Origin: Escherichia coli
Lineage (GTDB): Bacteria > Pseudomonadota > Gammaproteobacteria > Enterobacterales > Enterobacteriaceae
Strand: one strand, 5' to 3'
Assembly: GCF_013122565.1 (NCBI RefSeq)
Contig: NZ_CP053258.1
Length of the DNA: 64,000 bases
The translations under genes and the position numbers were made by a program. Below, piece by piece: positions 44,372 through 44,528 of this stretch. Numbering within the stretch: position 1 is the stretch's first letter; every line of letters starts with the position of its first letter. The notes beneath the pieces are model-generated. The model saw nothing but the letters and a program-made list of their open reading frames with translations, was not told the origin of the DNA and did not search any database.

Positions 44372-44385
44372 TCCAGCATGGTTTG

Positions 44386-44500
44386 TCGGATGCGGCGTGA
44401 ACGCCTTATCCGACCTACGATTCGGGGCCGTTTGTAGGCCCGATAAGACGCGCCAGCGTCGCATCGGGCATCCGTTGTCGCGTAAACGCTTTATCCGTCC
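44386..44500. repeat. REP/BIME elements between hemL and fhuB
   Basis: GTCGGATGCGGCGTGAACGCCTTATCCGACCTAC and inverted GTAGGCCCGATAAGACGCGCCAGCGTCGCATCGGGCATC, plus a third partial unit. Confidence 0.8.
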
Positions 44501-44528
44501 AGGCGTTCAGGGCCGTTATATGGAAAAA

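Follow-up and report, generated by a model that had tools for sequence, protein, structure and literature searches.

The genes hemL and fhuB converge, and in the stretch of Escherichia coli DNA analysed here (64,000 nucleotides, hereafter the window) the space between them is filled largely with repeats. The question that this locus raises is what these repeats are and whether they do anything for the genes on either side. A preliminary description had read them as a typical BIME with two to three REP units, and had proposed that the element may bind DNA gyrase or IHF and may stabilise the 3' ends of the hemL and fhu mRNAs. The limits that it gave for the spacer are exact. hemL (glutamate-1-semialdehyde 2,1-aminomutase) occupies 43091-44371 on the plus strand and ends in a TGA codon at 44369-44371, and fhuB (ferric hydroxamate ABC permease) occupies 44529-46511 on the minus strand and ends in a TAA codon at 44531-44529; both rest on the ORF list, on the RefSeq annotation (for hemL, that under the BLAST match) and on the C-terminal translation. 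The ORF list and the RefSeq names agree that 44372-44528 is the convergent spacer, 157 bp from stop to stop, and by the ORF list the BIME lies wholly outside genes, between the two stop codons.

The window runs opposite to K-12, and positions were converted as window = 217973 - MG1655 position, the ends of hemL fixing the relation. The hemL-fhuB spacer differs from that of K-12 by one base (44507, T vs A), and the window is 97.2-98.0% identical to K-12 MG1655 (42475-46972 and 2396-5152 compared). None of 5426 complete E. coli genomes is close to the window, the best identity being 98.4% over 12 kb (38000-50000); the DNA may derive from Shigella or from a lineage of E. coli outside these genomes. 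The REP cluster between hemL and fhuB is already known, as a published genome-wide table names the interval 'BIMEs2' (PMC6379681, table DS3); a literature search on hemL and fhuB together with REP returned nothing about this locus.

The repeats are REP units. The Y consensus GCCGGATGCGGCGTNAACGCCTTATCCGGCCTAC matches 44385-44418 on the plus strand with 2 mismatches, and the Z2 consensus matches 44434-44469 on the minus strand, also with 2 mismatches; from 100 dinucleotide-preserving shuffles of the window, 0.00 matches are expected by chance for the Y or the Z2 pattern. Both consensus sequences were checked against REP325, the canonical BIME-2 array of E. coli K-12 MG1655. The preliminary description had said that it should be given up if the sequence did not match the REP consensus on formal alignment. 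That alignment gave 32 of 34 positions for Y and 34 of 36 for Z2, and the identification as a REP cluster stands. As expected of a REP, the sequence is multicopy: in an E. coli genome the 277-bp query matches at 9 places (median).

Two of the units are intact. REP1, of Y type (TGTCGGATGCGGCGTGAACGCCTTATCCGACCTAC), lies at 44384-44418 on the plus strand, and REP2, of Z2 type (TGCCCGATGCGACGCTGGCGCGTCTTATCGGGCCTAC on the minus strand), lies at 44434-44470; for each, the consensus alignment, the hairpin and a match to the naRNA4 model point to the same unit. Their CTAC (44415-44418) and GTAG (44434-44437) ends face each other across an S-type short linker of 15 nt, GATTCGGGGCCGTTT, at 44419-44433, which aligns with only partial identity to the 17-nt GGAGGGTGCGGGAATTT linker of REP325 and is the most variable segment between strains. 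The third unit, REP3 (44471-44504, plus strand, including a preceding junction of about 5 nt), continues the alternation of orientations (+,-,+). It is a direct repeat of REP1, with 72% identity at a spacing of 85 nt, it aligns to REP325, and it is about 70% like Y. Its 3' half has been kept (GCGTAAACGCTTTATCCGTCC). The 5' arm has disappeared through substitutions and a deletion that, measured against a 162-bp allele (described below), removed about 5 nt, and AGGC stands where the REP tetranucleotide should be. Since an intact third Y REP occupies this place in two relatives, SCPM-O-B-8794 and Escherichia whittamii, REP3 is a decayed Y unit. The count of 'two to three' units was thus accurate: two are intact and one is decayed.

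The BIME-derived sequence extends beyond the REPs. To the left, TCCAGCATGGTT (44372-44383, plus strand) aligns weakly to the 'l' inter-REP linker of the canonical BIME-2 (MG1655 REP325) and recurs in E. whittamii, Escherichia sp. E1V33 and SCPM-O-B-8794. To the right, direct repeats and alignment identify a partial second copy of the S linker, GTTCAGGGCCGTTA (44505-44518), where the BIME-derived sequence ends, at the same point as in E. whittamii. The REPs cover about 68% of the spacer, and about 92% of it (44374-44518) aligns to the canonical BIME-2 unit when linker-derived sequence is included. An 11-bp hairpin, CAGGGCCGTTA / TAACGGCTCTG, was also found as an inverted repeat at 44508-44540, straddling the fhuB stop codon. 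One of its arms comes from the partial S linker of the BIME and the other from the last fhuB codons; it folds at -16.4/-12.4 kcal/mol and is possible only in the BIME allele.

To which class does the element belong? BIME-1 combines z1 and y with a long L linker in which an IHF site is often found, and BIME-2 combines z2 and y with a short linker, in tandem copies whose number varies between strains; the linkers are variable (PMC3333891, Ton-Hoang et al.). Because Y and Z2 are joined here by a 15-nt linker, the element is, judged by its sequence, of BIME-2 type, arranged l'-Y-S-Z2-s-Y'(decayed)-S', with the 15-nt linker at the CTAC/GTAG junction and about 5 nt at the other junction. The word 'typical' in the preliminary description calls for some qualification: there are only 1.5 BIME-2 units, the third REP is decayed, and roughly two E. 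coli genomes in three lack the element.

The intact units depart from the consensus in a particular way. The two mismatches of REP1 form a compensating pair, by which the consensus GCCGGAT/ATCCGGC becomes GTCGGAT/ATCCGAC, and the two mismatches of REP2 form another, by which GCCTGAT/ATCAGGC becomes GCCCGAT/ATCGGGC. Since the mismatches compensate within each REP, the stems of both are preserved. When 11 Y units were aligned, columns 3/30 held U-A in all eight copies from this locus and C-G in all three copies from other loci, a difference that amounts to one compensatory event inherited by every copy at hemL/fhuB. In two BIME alleles that are 4-5% divergent, those of TW10598 and 100248, the changes are confined to the loops of the REPs, the S linker, REP3 and the right-hand flank, and the stems of REP1 and REP2 are unchanged in both. 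The variant in REP2 may have had a further consequence. TnpA-REP cleavage cannot dispense with the central C↓T of its type I site, TGCC↓TGAT (PMC3333891), and since the local Z2 unit reads TGCC↓CGAT it should have lost that site.

The BIME is one of two alternative contents of this spacer in E. coli. The 157-bp BIME allele is carried by 1700 of the 5426 complete genomes and a 34-bp allele, TGATTTTGCCTCGCCCACCGGGCGAGGCATTCTA, by 3708, which by subtraction leaves 18 with neither. The two alleles have no spacer sequence in common, so the exchange of one for the other takes in the whole interval between the stop codons. The 34-bp allele consists of a 10-bp G+C hairpin (-20.6 kcal/mol) that starts 6 nt past the hemL stop codon and leads into a T-rich tail on the hemL strand, on which the consensus scan reports a terminator-like site. 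Among the genomes listed, carriers of the BIME include derivatives of K-12 and of B strains, strain C and several ETEC, and non-carriers include O157:H7, O111, O91:H21, ST69, APEC O2:K1:H7, NRG 857C and 83972. By the phylogroups of these strains, the BIME presumably belongs mainly to phylogroup A. Alleles that keep the third REP intact or have additional REPs were sought in the complete E. coli genomes and none was found; the full-length matches that were sampled or listed all span 277 bp, and the best identity to the 162-bp allele is 89.8%.

The relatives of E. coli carry both kinds of spacer. A degenerate pattern for the C-terminus of HemL, run against a single genome of each species, yielded 12 loci, none of them from Salmonella or from a genome named E. 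albertii, E. fergusonii or E. marmotae. The 157-bp form recurs in Escherichia sp. E1V33, which is 94% identical to the window. SCPM-O-B-8794 (NZ_JAATUR010000035.1), which is titled E. coli and is 92.8% identical over 4.2 kb, is probably another Escherichia species, by this divergence; it has the 162-bp form, with 3 REPs of which the third, a Y unit, is intact. In E. whittamii (92-93% identical) the spacer is 440 bp long and holds nine REPs, Y-Z2 being repeated with a period of 92 nt, and it has the same locus-specific stem variants and flanks as the window. Three REPs in the window, E1V33 and SCPM-O-B-8794 and nine in E. whittamii, at one and the same site, amount to the copy-number variation known from BIME-2. 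In two Citrobacter genomes the spacer measures 36 nt and contains the GCCTCGCC/GGCGAGGC hairpin that is also present in the 34-bp E. coli allele. Since the hairpin is common to Citrobacter and to this allele, it is probably the ancestral state and the BIME derived, a polarity drawn from the two Citrobacter genomes; against it stands the fact that all three non-coli Escherichia lineages recovered carry the BIME.

Other repeats occupy the same spacer in further genera. In Leclercia sp. 29361 it holds a GTAG-tagged REP-like palindrome, GTAGGCCGGGTAAGGCGCAGCCGCCACCCGGC, and palindromes of the CCCTCTCCC...GGGAGAGGG type are present in Leclercia sp. 29361, Leclercia adecarboxylata and Superficieibacter electus. 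The presence of different repeats in other genera suggests that the hemL-fhuB site has been colonised repeatedly.

What could the BIME do? The results point to the RNA. REP1 folds into a hairpin of -19.2 kcal/mol on the plus strand and -18.8 on the minus strand, and REP2 into one of -23.4 and -22.9 kcal/mol on the two strands, both folds containing the internal mismatch expected of REPs. REP3 does not form the REP hairpin, and its fold reaches only -3.1/-7.5 kcal/mol. As a whole the spacer folds better than its shuffles (z = -4.3 on the plus strand and -3.3 on the minus strand), with REP1 and REP2 as separate hairpins. The stem of REP1 starts at 44385, 13 nt past the hemL stop codon; a transcript from fhuB reaches its first strong hairpin at REP2, 59 nt past the fhuB stop codon. 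The consensus scan for terminators (both strands) and promoters found no intrinsic terminator-like or promoter-like site in 44200-44700. An intrinsic terminator in the BIME allele was accordingly rejected, with 0 sites in this interval having a G+C-rich hairpin and then a T run.

A published RNA prediction falls on the same place. AC0173 is a putative 3'UTR RNA of 76 nt on the hemL strand, predicted from RNA-seq at NC_000913:173,549-173,624 (PMC12306157, Table S1). Its equivalent in the window, 44349-44424 on the plus strand, takes in the final 23 nt of hemL, then the 13-nt gap and REP1, and stops 6 nt past CTAC. An RNA that ends just past a REP stem is what the classical REP exonuclease-barrier model predicts. 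With strong hairpins on both strands, no intrinsic terminator and a predicted AC0173 that ends past REP1, the role as a stabiliser of mRNA 3' ends, one of the three suggested in the preliminary description, is the best supported of the functions.

We therefore consider it likely that this BIME-2-type REP cluster acts mainly at the RNA level, capping the 3' ends of the hemL and fhuACDB mRNAs. The element is a non-autonomous repeat of the kind associated with TnpA-REP/RAYT (REP-associated tyrosine transposase), and events could have run as follows. In one lineage a REP array would have replaced the 34-bp terminator-like hairpin between the hemL and fhuB stop codons. Because the flanking genes converge, both strands would be transcribed into the BIME, and the read-through RNAs would fold REP1 and REP2 into stable stem-loops. 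These stem-loops would block 3'-to-5' exonucleases, with the end of the hemL mRNA set and protected by REP1 first and that of the fhuACDB mRNA by REP2 first. Exonuclease protection, Rho-dependent attenuation and effects on the levels of the HemL and Fhu proteins are steps that we infer. In strains with this allele the 3' end of hemL would then be defined by a REP hairpin, and not by the terminator-like hairpin of most E. coli.

The main rival to mRNA capping is that the BIME has no cellular function: a selfish or neutral repeat would sit where an equivalent hairpin had been, and its effects on RNA would be incidental. We lean against this explanation, and yet it is a serious one. The 3708 genomes that lack the BIME have a hairpin that is equally stable and nearer the stop codon, REP3 is decaying, and copy number has been free to vary between 3 and 9 REPs among Escherichia lineages. 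In addition, BIMEs are strain-variable and are substrates of TnpA-REP (PMC3333891). What argues against neutrality is the contrast within the divergent alleles, where the stems of REP1 and REP2 are invariant while the loops and the linker vary, together with the compensatory character of the departures from the consensus. Note, however, that invariant and compensated stems could also reflect templated repair or recent common descent.

A second possibility is that REP1 lowers the synthesis of HemL, terminating ribosomes stalling on its stem with tmRNA tagging and mRNA cleavage as the result. REPs less than 16 nt from a stop codon lower translation via ribosome stalling, according to passages in PMC12306157 and PMC5009743 that cite Liang, Rudd and Deutscher (2015), and the 13 nt between the hemL stop codon and the REP1 stem are within that distance. 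The hairpin of the alternative allele is closer still, at 6 nt, so stalling would not be peculiar to the BIME. Stalling is conceivable here, but we think it rather unlikely to be what the element is for.

The suggestion of gyrase binding survives as a property of the class and finds no echo at this element. Under it, the BIME would be a site at which DNA gyrase binds and cleaves and so relieves supercoils between the converging transcription units. BIME-2 elements are enriched in gyrase cleavage sites, most of which fall in y REPs (PMC6379681), and the element does lie between convergent genes, where positive supercoils accumulate. In the Topo-Seq data of the same work, however, table DS3 lists 'BIMEs2 173505-173589' (84 bp) and records 0 cleavage sites for each of the four conditions, Cfx, RifCfx, Micro and Oxo (PMC6379681). 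Coordinate conversion places this interval at window 44384-44468, that is, REP1, the linker and REP2. In the portion of table DS3 considered here, sites occur in only 3 of 21 single-pair BIME-2s of 78-87 bp, and the BIME-2s enriched in cleavage are long multi-copy arrays (PMC6379681). The element is probably not a significant gyrase site, and we regard a gyrase function as its explanation as unlikely.

Next come readings in which the transcribed REPs act in trans, either as a HU-binding nucleoid-associated RNA like naRNA4 or as an sRNA derived from the hemL 3'UTR (AC0173). naRNA4 (RF02564) is the only REP-derived family in Rfam, and its covariance model matches all three units, at 46.6, 37.7 and 32.2 bits, REP1 scoring 37.7 and REP2 lying within the 46.6-bit match. 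Moreover, transcription has been reported for about 80% of REPs (PMC4550694), and AC0173 is a differentially expressed putative sRNA (PMC12306157). Membership of naRNA4 was nevertheless rejected, the best score of 46.6 bits being below the gathering score of 59.5, and scores of this size merely reflect that naRNA4 is itself a Y-l-Z2 unit. Two thirds of strains, besides, live without the element. A role in trans is therefore, in our judgement, quite improbable.

Elsewhere in the window, the Rfam search placed two families above their gathering scores, both on the minus strand: t44 RNA (RF00127) at 28841-28927, with 83.5 bits against 44, and the HtrA 5'UTR thermometer (RF02700) at 37084-37129, with 77 bits against 52. 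CssrA, a chromosome-encoded Shigella sRNA, gave a sub-threshold match at 28016-28130 on the minus strand (53.6 bits vs a gathering score of 93).

The distribution of the alleles admits one further reading. E. coli and three lineages that are 92-94% identical to the window have the BIME, and most E. coli, as well as Citrobacter, have the hairpin. The two alleles might be an old polymorphism that crosses species of Escherichia and is kept by selection, setting different outputs of HemL, for the synthesis of haem, and of Fhu, for the uptake of iron. If this were true, the outputs would differ through stop-proximal ribosome stalling, 3'-end stability or AC0173. We give this reading very little credence. 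Whatever its cause, the replacement of one allele by the other (1700 vs 3708 genomes) is a handy natural experiment on the effect of a BIME on the expression of neighbouring genes.

The weakest reading, that IHF binds the BIME as a RIB/RIP element, has in its favour only the general statement that some BIMEs bind IHF, and is scarcely credible for a Y+Z2 element, given that IHF sites are a feature of BIME-1, in its long L linker (PMC3333891), and that the core is matched here at best with 2 mismatches. That best match lies inside REP3; the spacer has no L linker, and the core-motif scan found no IHF core WATCAANNNNTTR in it with at most 1 mismatch. The proposal of IHF binding in the preliminary description is thus without support, because the element is Y+Z2 with a short linker and lacks the core. 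As a positive control, the same motif is recovered in a BIME-1 of the window, whose linker has ATTCAAAATGTTG at 2889-2901, 1 mismatch from the IHF core.

This BIME-1, at 2843-2939, consists of a Y REP (2843-2876), a 36-nt linker and an inverted Z1 REP, and corresponds to the nlpE-yaeF spacer of K-12. Its linker gives a sub-threshold Rfam match to ES036/CssrF (30.1 bits vs 37.6). Beside it, 20 bp of the window (2822-2841) stand for 85 bp of K-12, a replacement that makes the BIME-1 locus polymorphic too.

The element at hemL/fhuB is a textbook REP/BIME, and it has little importance beyond correct annotation. That annotation should be amended in two respects: the element is not an IHF site, and a gyrase role is unsupported by existing Topo-Seq data.

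Compared with the known systems, it is closest to the BIME-2 family, exemplified by REP325 between yjdM and yjdN and by araD-araA. As occurs in these, Y and Z2 units alternate, and the element is extragenic, at gene 3' ends, with a tandem copy number that varies between lineages; its linkers, short at CTAC/GTAG and very short at the other junction, are probably those of the family as well. It differs from them in having only 1.5 units, a decayed third REP and no recorded gyrase cleavage, in its locus-specific stems (GTCGGAT and GCCCGAT, where the family has GCCGGAT and GCCTGAT), and in an S linker that has diverged to 15 nt from the 17 nt of REP325. With naRNA4 (CssrE), which is transcribed from REP325, it shares the Y and Z2 hairpins, and the model aligns to all three units; the scores are below the gathering threshold, and the linker is different. 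The BIME-1 elements (RIB/RIP) resemble it in being two inverted REPs at a gene end, one of them of Y type, but its partner unit is Z2 and not Z1, its linker has 15 nt and not about 36, and it is without the IHF core. Finally, the 34-bp allele of most E. coli and of Citrobacter fills the same stop-to-stop interval and likewise places a stable hairpin less than 15 nt from the hemL stop codon; it does so with a single, non-repetitive hairpin and a T-rich tail, and with no sequence in common with the BIME.
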